From: Escherichia phage UPWr_E1
DNA: 64,000 nt
Sequence record: PP418985.1
Strand: one strand, 5' to 3'
Shown here piece by piece: positions 2,976-56,581 of the stretch. The notes under the pieces were generated by a model. The model saw only the letters and a list, made by a program, of their open reading frames with translations, ran no database searches and was not told where the DNA came from. The number at the start of each line of letters is the position of its first letter. Position 1 is the stretch's first letter. A program made the translations under genes and the position numbers.

Positions 2976-3313
2976 TGAACGAAATGAAAATGTATATGAT
3001 CCTAAGTGATTCAGGATACACCTTCTTACAGGGTATTGATAGTGACTCGCGTCCTATTGTTTATGGCAAGGAACACCCGACCATCCCTGGGATCATTCTT
3101 GTTACGACAACATCACTTCGTCGAGTGTCGGAAAGTCCATACCTACAAAACGTAAAGCAAGACCGAGAATGGGCTTTCGAGTTAGGTAAAGATCTTGTTG
3201 AGTGGGTAAACTGTGAAGACAAGAACCAACGAAATCATGAAAGGAAGATTGCACGAATTGTACAGAGAAGAAAACTTGATGAAATCAAAAACAGGATTCT
3301 ACAATCAATGTAA
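2975..3313 (+). CDS. hypothetical protein (112 aa)
   Basis: ATG 2975 after GAGGAAA; overlaps upstream stop. Confidence 0.5.
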   Translation: MNEMKMYMILSDSGYTFLQGIDSDSRPIVYGKEHPTIPGIILVTTTSLRRVSESPYLQNVKQDREWAFELGKDLVEWVNCEDKNQRNHERKIARIVQRRKLDEIKNRILQSM

Positions 3314-4229: not shown

Positions 4230-4266
4230 TTGACATGAAAATGCGGTTATCCTATAATAGCCGCAT
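4230..4266 (+). promoter_or_regulatory. early promoter with hairpin enclosing the -10
   Basis: TTGACA 4230-4235; TATAAT 4253-4258; inverted repeat ATGCGG 4241-4246 / CCGCAT 4261-4266. Confidence 0.65.
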
Positions 4267-7454: not shown

Positions 7455-7489
7455 TTGACAATAAGAAATGGGAGTAGTAAAATACTCCC
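7455..7489 (+). promoter_or_regulatory. early promoter with -10 inside hairpin loop (type II)
   Basis: TTGACA 7455-7460; GGGAGTA 7470-7476 / TACTCCC 7483-7489; TAAAAT 7478-7483. Confidence 0.7.
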
Positions 7490-7514
7490 ATCTAATCAAG
7501 AAGGAGAATCAACA

Positions 7515-8362: not shown

Positions 8363-8365
8363 CGC

Positions 8366-8400
8366 TTGACATGATGAAACGGGAGTAGTAAGATACTCCC
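8366..8400 (+). promoter_or_regulatory. early promoter with -10 inside hairpin loop (type II)
   Basis: TTGACA 8366-8371; GGGAGTA 8381-8387 / TACTCCC 8394-8400; TAAGAT 8389-8394. Confidence 0.7.
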
Positions 8401-8425
8401 ATCTAAACAACGAGAGGATTACATT

Positions 8426-9604: not shown

Positions 9605-9634
9605 CATGCAAAGGGAGTATGCTATAATACTCCC
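9601..9634 (+). promoter_or_regulatory. early promoter with -10 inside hairpin loop (type II)
   Basis: TTGACA 9601-9606; GGGAGTAT 9613-9620 / ATACTCCC 9627-9634; TATAAT 9623-9628. Confidence 0.75.
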
Positions 9635-10153: not shown

Positions 10154-10162
10154 CTATCAACG

Positions 10163-10185
10163 AGCGGGAGAAATCCCGCTTTTTC
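10163..10185 (+). terminator. intrinsic terminator
   Basis: AGCGGGA-gaaa-TCCCGCT then TTTTT. Confidence 0.8.
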
Positions 10186-12060: not shown

Positions 12061-12066
12061 TTTTCA

Positions 12067-12098
12067 GCCGATCCGAAAGGGTCGGCTTTTTCGTTTTT
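12067..12098 (+). terminator. intrinsic terminator after nrdD
   Basis: 8-bp stem GCCGATCC / GGGTCGGC with GAAA loop, then TTTTTCGTTTTT. Confidence 0.8.
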
Positions 12099-12103
12099 AG
12101 GTG

Positions 12104-12131
12104 TTGACAATCTTGTTAGCTCATGTATAAT
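12104..12131 (+). promoter_or_regulatory. sigma70-type early promoter (extended -10)
   Basis: TTGACA 12104-12109; TGTATAAT 12124-12131. Confidence 0.7.
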
Positions 12132-17006: not shown

Positions 17007-18475
17007 TGAAGATTGAAACATTAATCGCATTGCCAGCGGCGGGGAAAACTGATGCTATACTTTCCCACGTCCTAGAGACAAAAGAAAAAGCGGTTATTGC
17101 TTCGCCATCTCGTGTTTTAAGTGAACAATCTTACAATAAGTTTAAAAGAATGGGCGGTCGTGCTGTCTTGATTGATAGCACCAGACTAAGAAGCCTTAAG
17201 ACAGTGCAAGCGTCGATAATGCAATCAGTTAAAGATGGTGCTGGTGTGATATTCATTACACATACAGCGTTATCTAATATGGAGCGTTCAAAAATGTTTA
17301 GTGAATATGCTCTTTACATTGATGAAGTTCCTCAACTGGTTGAATTTAATGAGTATCCGTTTAAGTCTAATCTTGAACTTATCACGAAGCATTGCGAACC
17401 AATCGCCGACGAATCGGAATGCCTACAGAACTTAGTTCTAAAAGACTCTGAGAAGGCCGCTATCAAAGAAAAGATAGAAAGTGCAAAGGATGGTACTGAT
17501 ATGATCGATTCTTCTCTTAGAGGGCTTTATGAGGCGTTATTAGAGAAGAAAATCAACGTTATGGTAAAACATAACGAAGGACACCGGAAGAACGGGTCGA
17601 AAATTGTTTTCTTGAACGATAACAAACACGGTACGTGGGGAGACTTTAAAAAGGTTACGATAGCATGTGCAAATCTCTTTGATACATATAGTGGGAAGTA
17701 TCTACGATACTATGCAAATTGCGATTTTGTTCCTAGTGCGCTAGAATCCAGACTATATTTCAAAGAGTATAAAAATACAGATAGAGTTAACATCATCCTT
17801 ATGACGGACTCTGAACGATGGTCGCGTCACCAGTCAGAAACAAACAATACCTTTGAACGTCTTGTTGATATGGTTAAAAATGAATGTGGTGATGACTTCA
17901 TTTATACCGTGAATCGGGACCGTGAAGCGTGCACAAATGGTATTGGTGAGCGGATACCTTACGGATCTTATGGTCTTAACTCTTACATTCATCATAAAAA
18001 TGTTGCTGTGATGTTCAGCTTTAACCCTCAACGATGGGAGATTGATATTTTAAAAGGTCTTGCTAATAGTTGCGATCTCCCGACAAATGAGTTTTTGAAA
18101 GCGCGTCATGTGTCTGATTATCTGGAACCAGCATTTCAATTATGTTTGCGTTGTAACCTGAGAGACAACGAGAGCAAGGAGAATGTTAATCTATATGTTC
18201 CTGATTGGGCGTTGGTAGATTATCTAAAAACGTTTCTACCTAATGCCAATGTAATAACAGACCGAATGATTCCGCTAGAATGTGGTGAGCGTAAAGGGCG
18301 AAAATCATTTAAAAAGATGTTCGACTTTAACGAGCAAGAGAATGCAAGATTTAACGGATTTAAGTACCGCATGAAGAAAAAAGGAAAAACTCTTGATCCG
18401 TCTGACGGTGAATCAGTAGAGATGGTTAGAGTGTGGATAACTAAGCAAAGAAAGTATAATGGTAATGGGGAATAG
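17006..18475 (+). CDS. P-loop NTPase of unknown function (489 aa)
   Basis: Walker A ALPAAGKT near N-terminus, Walker B-like YIDEV; no T4 counterpart recognised. Confidence 0.6.
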   Translation: MKIETLIALPAAGKTDAILSHVLETKEKAVIASPSRVLSEQSYNKFKRMGGRAVLIDSTRLRSLKTVQASIMQSVKDGAGVIFITHTALSNMERSKMFSEYALYIDEVPQLVEFNEYPFKSNLELITKHCEPIADESECLQNLVLKDSEKAAIKEKIESAKDGTDMIDSSLRGLYEALLEKKINVMVKHNEGHRKNGSKIVFLNDNKHGTWGDFKKVTIACANLFDTYSGKYLRYYANCDFVPSALESRLYFKEYKNTDRVNIILMTDSERWSRHQSETNNTFERLVDMVKNECGDDFIYTVNRDREACTNGIGERIPYGSYGLNSYIHHKNVAVMFSFNPQRWEIDILKGLANSCDLPTNEFLKARHVSDYLEPAFQLCLRCNLRDNESKENVNLYVPDWALVDYLKTFLPNANVITDRMIPLECGERKGRKSFKKMFDFNEQENARFNGFKYRMKKKGKTLDPSDGESVEMVRVWITKQRKYNGNGE

Positions 18476-18500
18476 CCCGAAAGGGTTATTTCCTAAATAA
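18471..18500 (+). terminator. possible weak terminator
   Basis: AATAGCCC-gaaa-GGGTTATT (includes a G-U pair), then TCCTAAAT. Confidence 0.35.
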
Positions 18501-19555: not shown

Positions 19556-19576
19556 TGGCTTTATAAGGGAGACTCT

Positions 19577-19600
19577 GAAAGGGGTTTCCCTTTTTATTTT
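19577..19600 (+). terminator. possible terminator
   Basis: Short GC stem around GGGGTTTCCC followed by TTTTTATTTT. Confidence 0.4.
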
Positions 19601-27481: not shown

Positions 27482-27517
27482 AGGGGTATTGACAAACTAA
27501 GTCGATTCCCCTATAAT
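27482..27517 (+). promoter_or_regulatory. sigma70-type promoter upstream of gene 43
   Basis: TTGACA 27489-27494; TATAAT 27512-27517; weak 5-bp stem AGGGG 27482-27486 / CCCCT 27508-27512 around the -35. Confidence 0.65.
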
Positions 27518-40890: not shown

Positions 40891-40997
40891 GTCATATACT
40901 TGACAATCACTCAATTTTTAATATGATTGTTGCAGCCGTCTTTGTGGCGGTTGCAGTAAGTTATGGTTATGTTATGAAGAGGTTTAATAATGAGTGA
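40887..40997 (+). CDS. hypothetical transmembrane peptide (36 aa)
   Basis: ATG 40887 overlapping upstream stop; single hydrophobic helix; stop overlaps gene 39 start. Confidence 0.25.
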   Translation: MSHILDNHSIFNMIVAAVFVAVAVSYGYVMKRFNNE

Positions 40998-42813
40998 GTT
41001 CCGCATTTTATCTGATCGTGAACATGTCCTTAAGCGTGCAGGAATGTATATAGGATCAACAACTTACGAAGAACATCAACGTTTCCTGTTCGGTAAGTGG
41101 ACAAAAATTTCATACGTTCCTGGACTGGTTAAAATCATTGATGAGATCATCGACAACTCTGTAGACGAGGCGATCCGCACTAACTTTGAATTTGCCAATG
41201 TGATTAGCGTCGATATCCAAAACAATATTGTTACGGTAACAGACAATGGTCGCGGTATTCCTCAACATATGGTTACTACCCCAGAGGGTACGCAGATTCC
41301 GCAACCTGTAGCCGCATGGACACGAACAAAAGCAGGGTCTAACTTTGATGATACAAATCGACTAACGCAAGGGATGAACGGCGTAGGATCGTCGTTGTCA
41401 AACTTCTTTAGCGATTGGTTTACTGGTGTGACCTGTGACGGTGAAACAGAAATGACCGTTCAATGTACAAACGGTGCTGAAAATATCACATGGTCATCGA
41501 AACCATCAAAATTGAAGGGAACGAAGGTTACATTTTGTCCAGACTTCGACCACTTCGAAGGTTATATGATGGACAACTCTGTTTTAGATATTGTTCATGA
41601 TCGTCTGCAATCATTGAGCGTAATCTTTCCTAAGATCACGTTTAAGTTTAATGGTAAACGTATTGTTAGTAAGTTCAAGGATTATGCTAAACTATACAAT
41701 GATGATCCGTTTGTCATTGAAGATAAAAACTTTTCACTTGCCCTAGTTCCTGCGGTTGAAGGTGAAGGTTTTAAATCAGTATCATTTGCTAATGGTCTGT
41801 TTACCAAAAACGGGGGAACACACGTAGACTACGTGACAGATGATCTTTGTGAAGAGATTGTAAAACGAATCAAGAAAGAATATAAGGTTGATGTTACTAA
41901 AGCTGCGGTTAAGTCTGGATTGACCTGTATTTTGATTGTTCGTGAATTGCCTAACCTTCGTTTTGATTCACAGACAAAAGAACGCTTGACTAATCCAACT
42001 GGTGATATCAAGCGACACATTGATCTGGACTTTAAAAAACTGGCTAAAGTCATTGCGAAGAAAGAAAACATTATCATGCCTATTATTGCTGTAGTCCTGG
42101 CACGCAAAGAGGCAGCAGATAAAGCGGCAGCGACTAAGGCAGCAAAGGCAGCAAAACGGGCTAAGGTAGCAAAACACGTTAAAGCTAACCTTATTGGAAC
42201 TGACGCAGAAACTACCCTGTTTTTGACGGAAGGTGATTCCGCAATCAACTATCTGATCTCTGTACGTGACCAAGATTTACATGGCGGTTTCCCGTTGCGA
42301 GGTAAAACTCTTACAACGTGGGAGCAACCAGAGGCAAAGATCGTTAAGAACGCCGAAATTTTTAACATCATGGCGATCACTGGTTTGCAATTTGGTGTTG
42401 ATGCATTGGAAGTTATGCAATACAAAAATATTGCTATTATGACAGACGCTGATACTGACGGCATAGGGTCTATTAAACCTAGTCTGATCTCTTTCTTTGC
42501 ACGTTGGCCTGAATTGTTCGAAGATGGACGAATCCGGTTTATCAAAACACCTATTATCATTGCTGAACCAAAGAAAGGTGATGATGTTCGATGGTATTAT
42601 GACCTAGAAGATTTCGAGAACGACCGAGATAATATCAAAGGTTACAACATTCGATATATCAAAGGTTTAGCATCGCTCACAGAATCAGACTATCATCGCG
42701 TGATCAACGATCCTGTCATGGAGATCATCACGTTACCGGAAAACTATAAAGAGCTATTCGATTTGCTCTATAGTGAAGATGCAGATCAGCGCAAAATTTG
42801 GATGCAATCATAA
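40990..42813 (+). CDS. 39: DNA topoisomerase II large subunit gp39 (GyrB-like ATPase), unsplit
   Basis: 607 aa, the length I recall for unsplit T2/T6-type gp39; GHKL ATPase and TOPRIM-like regions; Lys/Ala-rich linker; no separate gene 60. Confidence 0.9.
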   Translation: MSEFRILSDREHVLKRAGMYIGSTTYEEHQRFLFGKWTKISYVPGLVKIIDEIIDNSVDEAIRTNFEFANVISVDIQNNIVTVTDNGRGIPQHMVTTPEGTQIPQPVAAWTRTKAGSNFDDTNRLTQGMNGVGSSLSNFFSDWFTGVTCDGETEMTVQCTNGAENITWSSKPSKLKGTKVTFCPDFDHFEGYMMDNSVLDIVHDRLQSLSVIFPKITFKFNGKRIVSKFKDYAKLYNDDPFVIEDKNFSLALVPAVEGEGFKSVSFANGLFTKNGGTHVDYVTDDLCEEIVKRIKKEYKVDVTKAAVKSGLTCILIVRELPNLRFDSQTKERLTNPTGDIKRHIDLDFKKLAKVIAKKENIIMPIIAVVLARKEAADKAAATKAAKAAKRAKVAKHVKANLIGTDAETTLFLTEGDSAINYLISVRDQDLHGGFPLRGKTLTTWEQPEAKIVKNAEIFNIMAITGLQFGVDALEVMQYKNIAIMTDADTDGIGSIKPSLISFFARWPELFEDGRIRFIKTPIIIAEPKKGDDVRWYYDLEDFENDRDNIKGYNIRYIKGLASLTESDYHRVINDPVMEIITLPENYKELFDLLYSEDADQRKIWMQS

Positions 42814-42816
42814 CAC

Positions 42817-42855
42817 TTGACATAAAAGGGAGATTCTCTATAATGGGAGTCTCCC
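42817..42855 (+). promoter_or_regulatory. early promoter inside a hairpin that also has terminator architecture
   Basis: TTGACA 42817-42822; TATAAT 42839-42844 in the loop of stem GGGAGA 42828-42833 / TCTCCC 42850-42855; T-run 42856-42859. Confidence 0.65.
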
Positions 42856-42878
42856 TTTTCTTTTATGAGGATTTAATA

Positions 42879-43178
42879 ATGAGCAAAAAGAATAACATGA
42901 TGATGAGTATGGCAAAGTTCATGGAAGCAGACCTGATCAAAAATACAGTACAACATGAACGCCAGCGAGAAGCCGCAGTGATTGCAGAACAAGGTTTTCA
43001 GGTTATCCGCAATCCACCTAAAGATACGATTAAATCGAAATACAGAGACGATCTGAAAGACCATGAAGTACGGGAACTGGTTAATGATCTGCGTGACATT
43101 GCCATCAAATATCATGGTTATCAGTGCTTACGAGAACTGATCGCAGAGCGAGTAATGGATGCACTGAAAAAAGATTAA
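42879..43178 (+). CDS. hypothetical protein (100 aa)
   Basis: Hairpin promoter/terminator 42817-42860; ATG 42879 after GAGGATTTAATA. Confidence 0.55.
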   Translation: MSKKNNMMMSMAKFMEADLIKNTVQHERQREAAVIAEQGFQVIRNPPKDTIKSKYRDDLKDHEVRELVNDLRDIAIKYHGYQCLRELIAERVMDALKKD

Positions 43179-43185
43179 AAAGTTG

Positions 43186-43220
43186 TTGACACTGGATCGG
43201 GGATATATCATAATGTCCCC
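43186..43220 (+). promoter_or_regulatory. early promoter with hairpin enclosing the -10
   Basis: TTGACA 43186-43191; CATAAT 43209-43214; stem GGGGA 43199-43203 / TCCCC 43216-43220. Confidence 0.65.
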
Positions 43221-43636: not shown

Positions 43637-43894
43637 ATGAGTCGAAGTTTTGATTTTATGTTCGCCAAGTGTCATCGAGAAAAGAAATCGATGGACCTGT
43701 TTATGAAATGTTTGAGGTATGAATATGCGCACCTTCGGAAGAACAAAATTGATCCGCAAGTTTCCTACGAAAACATCAAGAAATATGCGAAAGAAGTGAT
43801 TGACAACGATTGCACCGTGACATATAATGCGTTTATTGATTTATGGGCGTGGGATGTAATCTACGCAGAGATGGACAAAGAAGATTTTAATTAA
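43637..43894 (+). CDS. hypothetical protein (85 aa)
   Basis: ATG 43637 after AAGGAGTAGAAA; contains consensus promoter 43800-43828 in its 3' part. Confidence 0.55.
   Translation: MSRSFDFMFAKCHREKKSMDLFMKCLRYEYAHLRKNKIDPQVSYENIKKYAKEVIDNDCTVTYNAFIDLWAWDVIYAEMDKEDFN
43800..43828 (+). promoter_or_regulatory. consensus sigma70 promoter inside the upstream ORF, 80 nt before rIIA
   Basis: TTGACA 43800-43805; 17-nt spacer; TATAAT 43823-43828. Confidence 0.6.
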
Positions 43895-43908: not shown

Positions 43909-46017
43909 ATGAAAATGCATATTGATAATGAAGAAGTATTTGGTAGTGACCTGAGCGGTGCGGTTGATTTTTCTCTGAAAGCAAGTAGCAAGGCTTTTAT
44001 GGTGCTTTCTAAGAACACGTATCAATATTGTGAGCGTGCTTGCGTCCGTGAGTATTCATGCAATGCTACAGACACTCACAAAGAAGCCGGAACCTTAGAT
44101 CGTCCGTTTGATATTCATTTACCGACTGCAATCGAACCGTATTTCTCTGTGCGTGATTATGGTACGGGTATTCCGTCTAAGAAAGAATTAGAACAACTGT
44201 TTACTGTTTACTTTGAATCAACCAAAGACCAGACTAATGATTATATCGGATCTTTTGGTTTAGGTGCGAAGTCTGCTTATAGCTATACTGACACCTTTAC
44301 AATCGTAAACTACTACAATGGTCGCGCTTATGGCTTTACTGCATTCGTGCAAAACTCTATGCCGAAAATGGTGCAGATTTTCGACGAACCGACCTATGAA
44401 GACAATGGTCTGAAAATCACTATTCCAGTGAAAGAGAAAGATATTCAGACATGGCATCGAGAAGCACAATTTGTACTGCGTCATTTTGGGGAACACAAAC
44501 CTAATATCAATGCCATCGAAATTAATTATTTCCCTAGCTTTGATAATTATTATGTGTGTAATGGACGTGATAACGATTCCTATGTGGTATATGCAATCAT
44601 GGGTAAGATCCAGTATCCGATCCCGTATGAATATGTTCGCGGAACATGGTTAGAAGCGGTAAACCGCCAGCACCAGACCATTTACATCAATTTCGAGTTA
44701 GGTGATCTGGACCTGATGCCATCGCGTGAAGAAGTTCACTTGTCAATTGAGACTAAAGCGAACATCGAAAAACGCATTGCAGAAATCAATGAAATGATGT
44801 TGGAAAAGGTTAAAGAAAAGATCGCCAGCATTGAAACAGAGCGTAAACTTGCGCAATTTATGAGCGAGTATTCATCGACTCAACGCAATATTATTAGCAA
44901 AATGGGTAAGATCGGACAGTGGGATGATCCGGTAGCAATCTATAATAAGTTTGTGAATGCGGGTAAAGATTCGCCAAATGACGTAGAAGGACAGGTGTAT
45001 ACTCTGTATCGCACTCGACACACAATCAGCAAATTGCGCCCTGCTTTCGTTAGCAGTCAATACAACATTACGCACTTTGTATGGATTCATAAAGAAGATA
45101 TTCTGTGTGTAATTGATGATACAGATAAACCGAAACTGCGTGCACTGACTCTTAACGGCATGGTCCAGGAATACGGCATCAATAAAAAGGTACTGGTGTT
45201 CCGTCAGAACAACGAAAAACATATGGAGACTTTCGAGTACATCAAACAGTATTATGATGAATCGGAAATGACCGTGATTAAAGTGTCCGAGGCCGACGAC
45301 CTGCGTGCTAAAGCAGTTAAGCCGGAGAAGACCGAGCGTACACAACGTGAAGCTACTCCTAAGCTACCTAACGTGTATATCATGGAAAAGATTGGTGACA
45401 GTTGGCATAAAACCAGCCATCACATGAAAGCGGCAGAGATTCGCGAGTTATCAGGCTTGCACATGTTCCGCGTGGGGGATGCATTCGAAAGCCGTATCCG
45501 TCAATCGATCTATAATGAAAATACATTACACACGGCGCTTGACTACTTCGGGGTAACAAAGTATATTATTACCCGTAATGAGACACAAAAATATCTCGTT
45601 GACGAACAACTGGAATGTGCGCTAGAATTTGTTCGCGGTAAGCTGGCGGGTCTGGCTAAGAAGGTTAAGACCAATCATCTGGGGTATGGCGAATATCTGG
45701 GTGTGATCACTATGTTGTTTCATGACGATGAACTAGAACGCTGTATTCCAGAATTTATTGACAGACTGTACGGTCGTCATTATAATAAAGAGGTTTCCAA
45801 GTTACTCCTTCGTACTCGTTGGATTATGGACGAAGAAACTAAAAAGATCTGTGATGAAAAATTCACGGCAGCAAACGAACGAATTAAAGCAGTTTGTGCG
45901 AAGTTTAAAGAGAATAGCCCGTTACTGTATGATATTGTAGATAACTGGTATCGTATTCTGCATAACGACAAACGCGCACAAGACTTTATGAAACTGGTTA
46001 AGAATGTTAAATTTTAA
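43909..46017 (+). CDS. rIIA: rIIA protein
   Basis: 702 aa (T4 rIIA about 725 aa); N-terminal ATPase-like region (DYGTGIP); position between 39 and rIIB. Confidence 0.75.
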   Translation: MKMHIDNEEVFGSDLSGAVDFSLKASSKAFMVLSKNTYQYCERACVREYSCNATDTHKEAGTLDRPFDIHLPTAIEPYFSVRDYGTGIPSKKELEQLFTVYFESTKDQTNDYIGSFGLGAKSAYSYTDTFTIVNYYNGRAYGFTAFVQNSMPKMVQIFDEPTYEDNGLKITIPVKEKDIQTWHREAQFVLRHFGEHKPNINAIEINYFPSFDNYYVCNGRDNDSYVVYAIMGKIQYPIPYEYVRGTWLEAVNRQHQTIYINFELGDLDLMPSREEVHLSIETKANIEKRIAEINEMMLEKVKEKIASIETERKLAQFMSEYSSTQRNIISKMGKIGQWDDPVAIYNKFVNAGKDSPNDVEGQVYTLYRTRHTISKLRPAFVSSQYNITHFVWIHKEDILCVIDDTDKPKLRALTLNGMVQEYGINKKVLVFRQNNEKHMETFEYIKQYYDESEMTVIKVSEADDLRAKAVKPEKTERTQREATPKLPNVYIMEKIGDSWHKTSHHMKAAEIRELSGLHMFRVGDAFESRIRQSIYNENTLHTALDYFGVTKYIITRNETQKYLVDEQLECALEFVRGKLAGLAKKVKTNHLGYGEYLGVITMLFHDDELERCIPEFIDRLYGRHYNKEVSKLLLRTRWIMDEETKKICDEKFTAANERIKAVCAKFKENSPLLYDIVDNWYRILHNDKRAQDFMKLVKNVKF

Positions 46018-54625: not shown

Positions 54626-54630
54626 AAAAG

Positions 54631-54657
54631 AAGGGGAGGCCGAAAGGCTTCCCCTTT
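54631..54657. terminator. bidirectional terminator between convergent early (+) and late (-) units
   Basis: AAGGGGAGGC-cgaaag-GCTTCCCCTT flanked by AAAAAAG upstream and TTT downstream. Confidence 0.75.
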
Positions 54658-56543: not shown

Positions 56544-56554
56544 TTAAGATCCTT

Positions 56555-56573
56555 AGCGGGGAGAAATCCCCGC
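56555..56573 (-). other. intercistronic hairpin between gene 37 and glycine-rich paralog A
   Basis: + strand AGCGGGGA-gaaa-TCCCCGCT; same stem word as the type I promoter hairpins; T-run only on + strand side. Confidence 0.55.
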
Positions 56574-56581
56574 TATTTTAA

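Follow-up and report, generated by a model that had tools for sequence, protein, structure and literature searches.

Elements in which an early promoter is combined with a stem-loop were described in the phages RB49 and phi1 under the name PeSL (promoter-early stem-loop), and they number about 50 per genome, with 51 in RB49 and 52 in phi1 (Arbiol et al. 2010, PMC2839356). Their layout comprises an upstream stop, a sigma-70 consensus promoter, a stem-loop of the G-run/C-run type, a Shine-Dalgarno sequence and an ATG, and the stem-loop was found at five positions, that is between the promoter boxes, overlapping the -35 or the -10, or on either side of the promoter, the commonest being between the boxes or overlapping the -10 (PMC2839356). 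In reporter assays, one PeSL stem-loop lowered lacZ expression about as rrnB T1 does (an assay performed on PeSL211/210), and one intact PeSL promoter reached about 13,000 Miller units (promoter assays performed on PeSL193/192 and PeSL206/205); these promoters were so strong that most reporter clones carried point mutations in the -35 or the -10 (PMC2839356). PeSLs are also termed “composite terminator/promoter sequences” (Comeau et al. 2014, PMC4122927), and they were proposed to drive modular shuffling and the formation of mini-circles (Arbiol et al. 2010; PMC4122927).

In bacteria, promoter-coupled terminators are widespread, and a polymerase bound at the promoter raises the efficiency of termination (Fletcher et al., bioRxiv 2026, 10.64898/2026.08.19.745784). 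Termination in this class takes place about 10 bp upstream of the transcription start; the stem-loop is located at the -35, and the promoter spacer contains the T tract. Neither phages nor PeSLs are mentioned in the preprint (10.64898/2026.08.19.745784).

The element analysed here lies between gene 39 and ORF005 in the window, by which we mean the whole 64-kb stretch of DNA that was analysed. The window belongs to an RB49-like coliphage of the genus Krischvirus; the region is 98-99% identical to MIZ6, RB49 and Phi1, the 58 matching records, among them RB49 and Phi1, all come from RB49-type phages and are 90-99% identical, and Krischvirus is the genus in every matching record whose taxonomy was read. 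From its sequence, the element is very probably a PeSL of the -10-overlapping subclass, in which an intrinsic terminator and an early sigma-70 promoter would be combined. It has in common with the published PeSLs the phage group (an RB49/phi1-type genome), the intergenic and co-directional layout, a sigma-70 promoter (here a 12/12 match), a stem-loop over the -10, a small hypothetical gene downstream and a location at which relatives differ by insertion or replacement, represented here by an HNH gene and a hypervariable 3′ end of gene 39. The hairpin site is already annotated in public records and the class is already described, and nothing about the element is new in kind. In RB49, the orthologue carries a TransTerm terminator at 3163-3190 with a confidence of 100, listed as “RB49ORF005c<--60plus39” (Nolan et al. 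2006 supplement), and the exactly orthologous bases of the GEC-3S RefSeq record are annotated as a promoter, with -35 and -10 marked, and as a terminator that overlaps it. Only the terminator is annotated at the site in the records of G5211, Makalu and TB34, and the main text of the study that described PeSLs does not mention the gene 39/ORF005 site (PMC2839356).

Upstream of the element lies gene 39 (40990..42813, + strand), an ORF fused as 60+39 that encodes the large subunit of DNA topoisomerase II (607 aa; PHROG 543, E = 7e-253); a 60+39 topoisomerase is likewise annotated in the RB49, Phi1 and GEC-3S records. Its TAA stop codon occupies 42811-42813. Downstream lies a homologue of ORF005 (42879..43178, + strand), a hypothetical protein of 99 aa (PHROG 15065, E = 4e-67), whose counterparts in named genomes are RB49p005 and phi1p005 and which a viral contig scan found at 97-98% identity in two viral contigs; rIIA follows about 1 kb beyond it. 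The start codon of ORF005 is the ATG at 42879, preceded by the Shine-Dalgarno sequence GAGGA (42867..42871, + strand), which belongs to a stereotyped GAGGAT... ribosome-binding module. From stop codon through Shine-Dalgarno sequence to ATG, the whole element of 65 nt is intergenic and co-directional with the genes of the + strand.

A preliminary description of this DNA had placed TTGACA and TATAAT directly past the gene 39 stop, and the two hexamers indeed form an exact 12/12 match to the sigma-70 consensus, with a spacer of 16 nt. The -35 hexamer (42817..42822, + strand) lies 3 nt past the gene 39 stop and 1 nt ahead of the stem, while the -10 hexamer (42839..42844, + strand) is exactly the 6-nt hairpin loop; the promoter had been described as lying in the loop, which is right for the -10 and has to be corrected for the -35, one base upstream of the stem. 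The hairpin itself, depicted earlier as an imperfect GGGAGA...TCTCCC structure, is present, but it is larger than described and uninterrupted: it spans 42824-42859 with 15 contiguous pairs (42824-42838 with 42845-42859) and with neither mismatch nor bulge, two of the pairs being G.U (T42834-G42849 and T42837-G42846). Its 5′ arm AAAAGGGAGATTCTC (42824..42838, + strand) fills the promoter spacer, and its 3′ arm GGGAGTCTCCCTTTT (42845..42859, + strand) spans the discriminator GGGAGT and the first bases predicted to be transcribed, the arms being of the G-run/C-run type (GGGAG.../...CTCCC). The G+C-rich core GGGAGAUUCUC/GGGAGUCUCCC comprises 11 bp with 6 G-C pairs and is followed by UUUUCUUUU, with 8 U of 9, which corresponds to the U tract TTTTCTTTT at 42856..42864 on the + strand.

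The terminator architecture that had been proposed after gene 39 is borne out by RNA folding, with a stable stem ahead of the U tract. The full hairpin folds at -23.2 kcal/mol (z = -4.5), with none of 200 shuffles as stable, and the 11-bp core by itself reaches -19.4 kcal/mol (z = -4.9); in stability the hairpin ranks first among the perfect-stem hairpins on both strands of the entire window. Its pair probability is 0.99-1.0 in all three contexts folded, with 60 to 180 nt of upstream sequence. The anatomy is that of an intrinsic terminator, with a G+C-rich stem, a short loop, an adjoining U tract and a gene upstream on the same strand, and RNA release is predicted at about 42862-42865, 7-9 nt past the G+C-rich stem. 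On the - strand the fold is weaker by 7.6 kcal/mol (-15.6 vs -23.2 kcal/mol), because two of the pairs are G.U, and this asymmetry points to a role at the RNA level on the + strand. An Rfam search returned two chance-level matches only (E about 0.5-0.6). A bidirectional terminator was considered and rejected, as the fold of -15.6 kcal/mol on the - strand is followed only by UUUUAUGU; termination on that strand would also be of no obvious use, since all local genes lie on the + strand. The terminator of the TB34 record is placed on the - strand.

Perfect promoters of the form TTGACA-N16-18-TATAAT occur nine times in the window, all of them on the + strand, against 0.06 expected over 128 kb of strand. 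Two of the nine are intragenic, at 43800-43828 in the ORF before rIIA and at 45758-45786 inside rIIA, and neither has an associated strong hairpin. At the gene 39 site, transcription is predicted to start at about 42851, from the usual distance of 7 nt after the -10, and the GGGA directly 3′ of the -10 constitutes a favourable discriminator (sigma-70 region 1.2). The 20 nt upstream of the -35 are part of the gene 39 coding sequence and have 65% A+T, whereas the corresponding stretches of most sibling promoters of the window have 75-90% and end in GTTG. No clear A-rich tract precedes the 42817 promoter, the GTTG before the -35 and a CCAT/CAT start context are absent there, the predicted +1 is a pyrimidine, and the initial transcribed region is T-rich. 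The orthologous promoter is missing from the HMM-based list of 51 RB49 early promoters (Nolan et al. 2006), probably because it has no A-rich tract or GTTG before the -35. Judging from these sequence features, the 42817 element appears to be the best terminator among the cassettes of the window but a context-atypical promoter, and this is the main residual doubt. Between the terminator and the ORF005 start there is no promoter-like site, the next one downstream being at 43186, past ORF005; given an efficient terminator upstream, ORF005 would therefore need the 42817 promoter. Literature searches found no 5′/3′-end sequencing, Term-seq or 3′ mapping for Krischvirus; 5′ ends of RB49 were reportedly mapped by Desplats et al. 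in 2002.

An in-frame ATG at 42843-42845, made of the last two bases of the -10 and the next G, is taken as the start of ORF005 in the W115, JEP8, Whisky and ECD7 records (excerpt position 1242 in W115 and 584 in JEP8, Whisky and ECD7), giving proteins of 111-131 aa instead of 99. This start is probably a misannotation, as it is part of the hairpin and precedes the predicted start of transcription.

Conservation was assessed in an alignment of 15 relatives, 13 of them annotated phage records and two viral contigs; the annotated records were used because the viral contig scan with ORF005 gave two loci only. From TTGACA to the ATG, all 15 relatives are identical to the window save at position 42825, where the window has A and all 15 have C. 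The A adds two A-U pairs that reach into the U tract, owing to which the stem measures 15 bp in the window and 13 bp in the relatives. In the 12 insertion-free genomes, 1 of the 65 positions of the element is variable; the coding sequence on its flanks has 99 variable positions of 814 (about 12%), and the intergenic region that follows has 13 of 57. An invariance of the element beyond that of its flanks is suggested by these counts, at roughly p = 0.002 by estimate, among relatives that are at most about 6% divergent at the locus. Both the loop and the -35, which is outside the hairpin, are invariant, and conservation starts sharply at the -35.

Directly upstream, the last 113 nt of gene 39 (42701-42813) are the most variable stretch, with 24 variable sites among 12 relatives, and the final 30 nt or so of the gene are replaced in phages that carry an HNH gene. 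Such a variable 3′ end would fit the target of a homing endonuclease or a co-conversion tract. The insertion that separates the cassette from the gene 39 stop was found in eight records, four of which were read (JSE, G5211, W115 and FL15), and consists of a free-standing HNH endonuclease gene of 564 nt that starts 1 nt past the gene 39 stop (656-1219 of the JSE excerpt and the same position in G5211, W115 and FL15, equivalent to 42814-42816 of the window). Bases 2-4 of the -35 TTGACA serve as the TGA stop of the HNH gene, and the hexamer is still kept. As the HNH gene has no promoter of its own, it would share the transcript and the terminator of gene 39; and, with the insertion at its 5′ edge, the cassette behaves as a module boundary, as was proposed for PeSLs. 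A dispersed or mobile repeat was also considered and rejected, since a search of the window for the 28-nt core gave a single copy even when 3 mismatches were allowed; elsewhere it was found only at the same locus in the two viral contigs.

Taken as a PeSL, the hairpin most likely has two roles, to end the transcript of gene 39 and to start a new transcript for ORF005. Host RNA polymerase coming from gene 39 would transcribe both arms and UUUUCUUUU, and its RNA would be released at the predicted point past the stem. The transcripts that arrive there would likely originate from a promoter-like site ahead of gene 39 (40900..40959, + strand), in which TTGACA-16-TATGAT is followed by a 12-14-bp hairpin at 40927-40959 and whose function is putative. 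Host sigma-70 holoenzyme, on the other hand, would recognise TTGACA/TATAAT in duplex DNA and start inside the 3′ arm, so that the new RNA, with the 5′ arm missing, would form no hairpin, escape termination and run on into ORF005. Folding of RNA from 42849 onward yields nothing significant (-5.5 kcal/mol, z = +0.4). The gene 39 unit would thus be ended, and ORF005 given its own early promoter, in an intergenic stretch of 65 nt, and the conserved cassette would in addition mark a boundary of module exchange between related phages. The logic of termination and restart put forward in the preliminary description agrees in its anatomy with the published rationale for PeSLs, the start being predicted past the 5′ arm; the 5′ ends expected there at about 42850-42855 fit this start, whereas the 3′ ends, expected at about 42856-42860, are predicted somewhat further downstream, at about 42862-42865. 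The element looks like a fixed, constitutive stop-and-restart insulator and not like a switch, since no alternative RNA structure was found. If so, one element of 45 nt would close one transcription unit and open the next, a compact design that can be recovered from raw sequence. In RB49-like phages, dozens of small early genes are insulated by cassettes of this kind, which also mark where genes are swapped between phages. Gene 39 is bracketed by cassettes on both sides, and the same has been reported for gene 43 in RB49 and phi1.

The atypical surroundings of the promoter have to be weighed here, as the lack of an A-rich tract and of a CAT context, the pyrimidine at +1, the T-rich initial transcript, the absence from the RB49 early-promoter list and the several records that annotate just a terminator would all suit a site that is a terminator only, with a weak or inactive TTGACA/TATAAT and with ORF005 expressed via read-through. 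We consider this unlikely, since a 12/12 match at a given place is very improbable in view of the expected number, the -35 is invariant in spite of its position outside the hairpin and is kept even where the HNH gene ends within it, there is no evident reason why the loop should be exactly and invariably TATAAT, and the GGGA after the -10 is a favourable discriminator. Sibling PeSL promoters, moreover, were very strong in reporter clones (PMC2839356). For a mere coincidence of promoter-like match and hairpin one could cite how often weak promoter-like sequences turn up in A+T-rich DNA generally, of which 40 were observed vs 27 expected at a loose threshold; chance is nevertheless extremely improbable, being refuted by the nine perfect matches, all on one strand, by a hairpin with z of -4.5 to -4.9 that is top-ranked in the window, by the recurrence of the architecture at about ten sites of the window and by the conservation of the element.

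The preliminary description went further and saw in the site a terminator/promoter switch, that is an attenuator or antiterminator with a conditional hairpin, at which read-through and initiation would alternate. In bacteria, the efficiency of a terminator can indeed be altered by a polymerase bound at a promoter that overlaps it (10.64898/2026.08.19.745784), and apart from this the idea goes back to that description's own reasoning. It did not survive the folding analysis, in which the hairpin kept its near-certain pairing in every context and neither a competing structure nor an antiterminator appeared with 60 to 180 nt of upstream sequence; no leader peptide, ligand-type fold or Rfam match was found either, and the 10 nt between the gene 39 stop codon and the stem leave no room for a leader. 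A regulated switch is thus highly improbable. Very improbable, too, is an element that acts mainly on DNA, as a cruciform or a recombination site for the exchange of modules or the formation of mini-circles, with little role in transcription. The proposal that PeSLs mediate modular shuffling and mini-circle formation (PMC4122927), the insertion of the HNH gene exactly at the 5′ edge of the cassette in JSE-like phages and the hypervariable sequence just upstream would be consistent with it, but the two G.U pairs would be mismatches in a cruciform (G.T on one strand and A.C on the other), the - strand fold is the weaker one, the U tract and the site just past a stop codon are features of a terminator, and the 28-nt core is not dispersed in the window or in other viral contigs. 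A role as a recombination boundary is, in any case, compatible with a role in transcription. The more specific notion of a DNA cruciform that exposes a single-stranded -10 loop was set aside as unlikely, on account of the two G.T/A.C pairs and the weaker - strand fold.

The combined terminator and early promoter that we favour can be set beside the same junction in other T4-like phages, where gene 39 is followed by a hairpin in all five sampled (other genera where recorded). As the hairpin is found in each phage, a stop signal would be present throughout the sample, and the mode of restart varies. In 44RR2.8t (excerpt 1041-1160), a canonical terminator is followed about 30 nt later by an early promoter; in T2 (excerpt 1035-1088), a T4-type early promoter, GTTTAC...TATAAT, lies right past the gene 39 stop, with a small 5-bp stem-loop between the promoter boxes; and in Roth79 and AlbertHofmann the hairpin after gene 39 is present without a promoter. 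The gene 39 junction is, by this sequence comparison, a predicted transcription boundary in distant T4-like genera too.

With canonical intrinsic terminators of the E. coli/T4 type, the element has in common the 11-bp G+C-rich stem, the 6-nt loop, the 8 U of 9, a position 10-14 nt past the stop codon and an upstream A tract; it differs from them in that its loop and spacer double as a consensus promoter. Another comparison is offered by the lambdoid moron, a gene flanked by its own promoter and its own terminator. Here as well a small accessory gene would have its own promoter and be insulated from neighbouring transcription (partly PMC1524935), but in morons the promoter and the terminator lie at opposite ends of the inserted gene and are not nested in 45 nt; novel ORFs of T4-like phages are, moreover, without the deviant G+C of morons (PMC1524935). 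Bacterial promoter-coupled terminators share with the site the terminator and promoter DNA within 35 bp, the co-directional tandem genes and the idea of coupled functions, with a possible mutual interference of polymerases. The order of the parts is reversed, however: here the loop holds the -10 and the T tract occupies about +6 to +14, so that about 11-14 nt separate the predicted start from the predicted release downstream of it, unlike in the bacterial class, and the site falls outside that class.

Perhaps, the interleaved geometry couples the two functions in a way that has been described neither in PeSLs nor in promoter-coupled terminators of bacteria, an idea that we regard as tentative and decidedly unlikely. 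A polymerase that ends the gene 39 RNA would then be released on the ORF005 promoter and recycled after sigma re-binding; conversely, a holoenzyme sitting at this promoter would stop the polymerases arriving from gene 39 before they have made the hairpin. If this is true, the output of ORF005 would depend on the traffic over gene 39.

About ten cassettes in which this architecture recurs are present in the window, all on the + strand. The stem lies between the boxes at 1478, 3551 and 51318, overlaps the -10 at 4230, 7455, 8365, 9601 and 43186, which is the type of the gene 39 site, and encloses the -35 at 27489. The gene 39 cassette is the sole one in the window with a canonical U tract, and no sibling stem is as long: the siblings measure 7-10 bp, compared with 15 bp at gene 39 (13 bp in its relatives). 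In the other -10-overlapping cassettes, the stem has 8-10 bp and the loop is shifted by 1-2 nt relative to the -10, whereas the gene 39 loop coincides with it exactly; and the 3′ arm extends beyond the predicted +1 at gene 39, whereas at 4230, 7455, 9601 and 43186 the stem stops within a base of it. In these siblings (stems at 4241-4266, 7468-7491, 9613-9634 and 43199-43220, + strand) the U tract is absent, and CATCGAAA-type start regions are found instead. With a perfect promoter, the strongest hairpin and a true U tract, the gene 39 copy comes closest in the window to a textbook case, and for this reason it would be a good test object for the mutual influence of overlapping promoters and terminators, a question to which the 2026 preprint on bacteria has drawn attention again. 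The canonical model of termination gives no account of either termination or attenuation by the sibling stems without a U tract.

Two of the cassettes, at 7455-7495 and 8365-8405, are about 910 nt apart and have a near-identical core, TTGACA...GGGAGTAGTAA(A/G)ATACTCCCATCTAA; the pair is of the direct-repeat type that was proposed to yield PeSL mini-circles. The start regions of the window also carry stereotyped ribosome-binding modules. The module GGAGAATCA occurs ten times on the + strand (1241, 1524, 3611, 7503, 13307, 37151, 43421, 50570, 51085 and 51367) and not at all on the - strand; it includes GGAG, which the T4-type RegB endoribonuclease is known to target. A second module, GAGGAT(T/A)A.A.TATG, which is the type of ORF005, likewise has ten sites on the + strand (1825, 4281, 7790, 8414, 9647, 12152, 14954, 31604, 43897 and 52674).

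Finally, a second class of strong hairpins in the window has GAAA tetraloops (12066-12087, 19565-19592, 54630-54657, 56554-56575, 18466-18495 and 10162-10181), most of them followed by T-rich sequence; they look like plain terminators, with no embedded promoter. The hairpin at 12066-12087 lies 17 nt ahead of a separate perfect promoter at 12104, the two being arranged in tandem and not nested.
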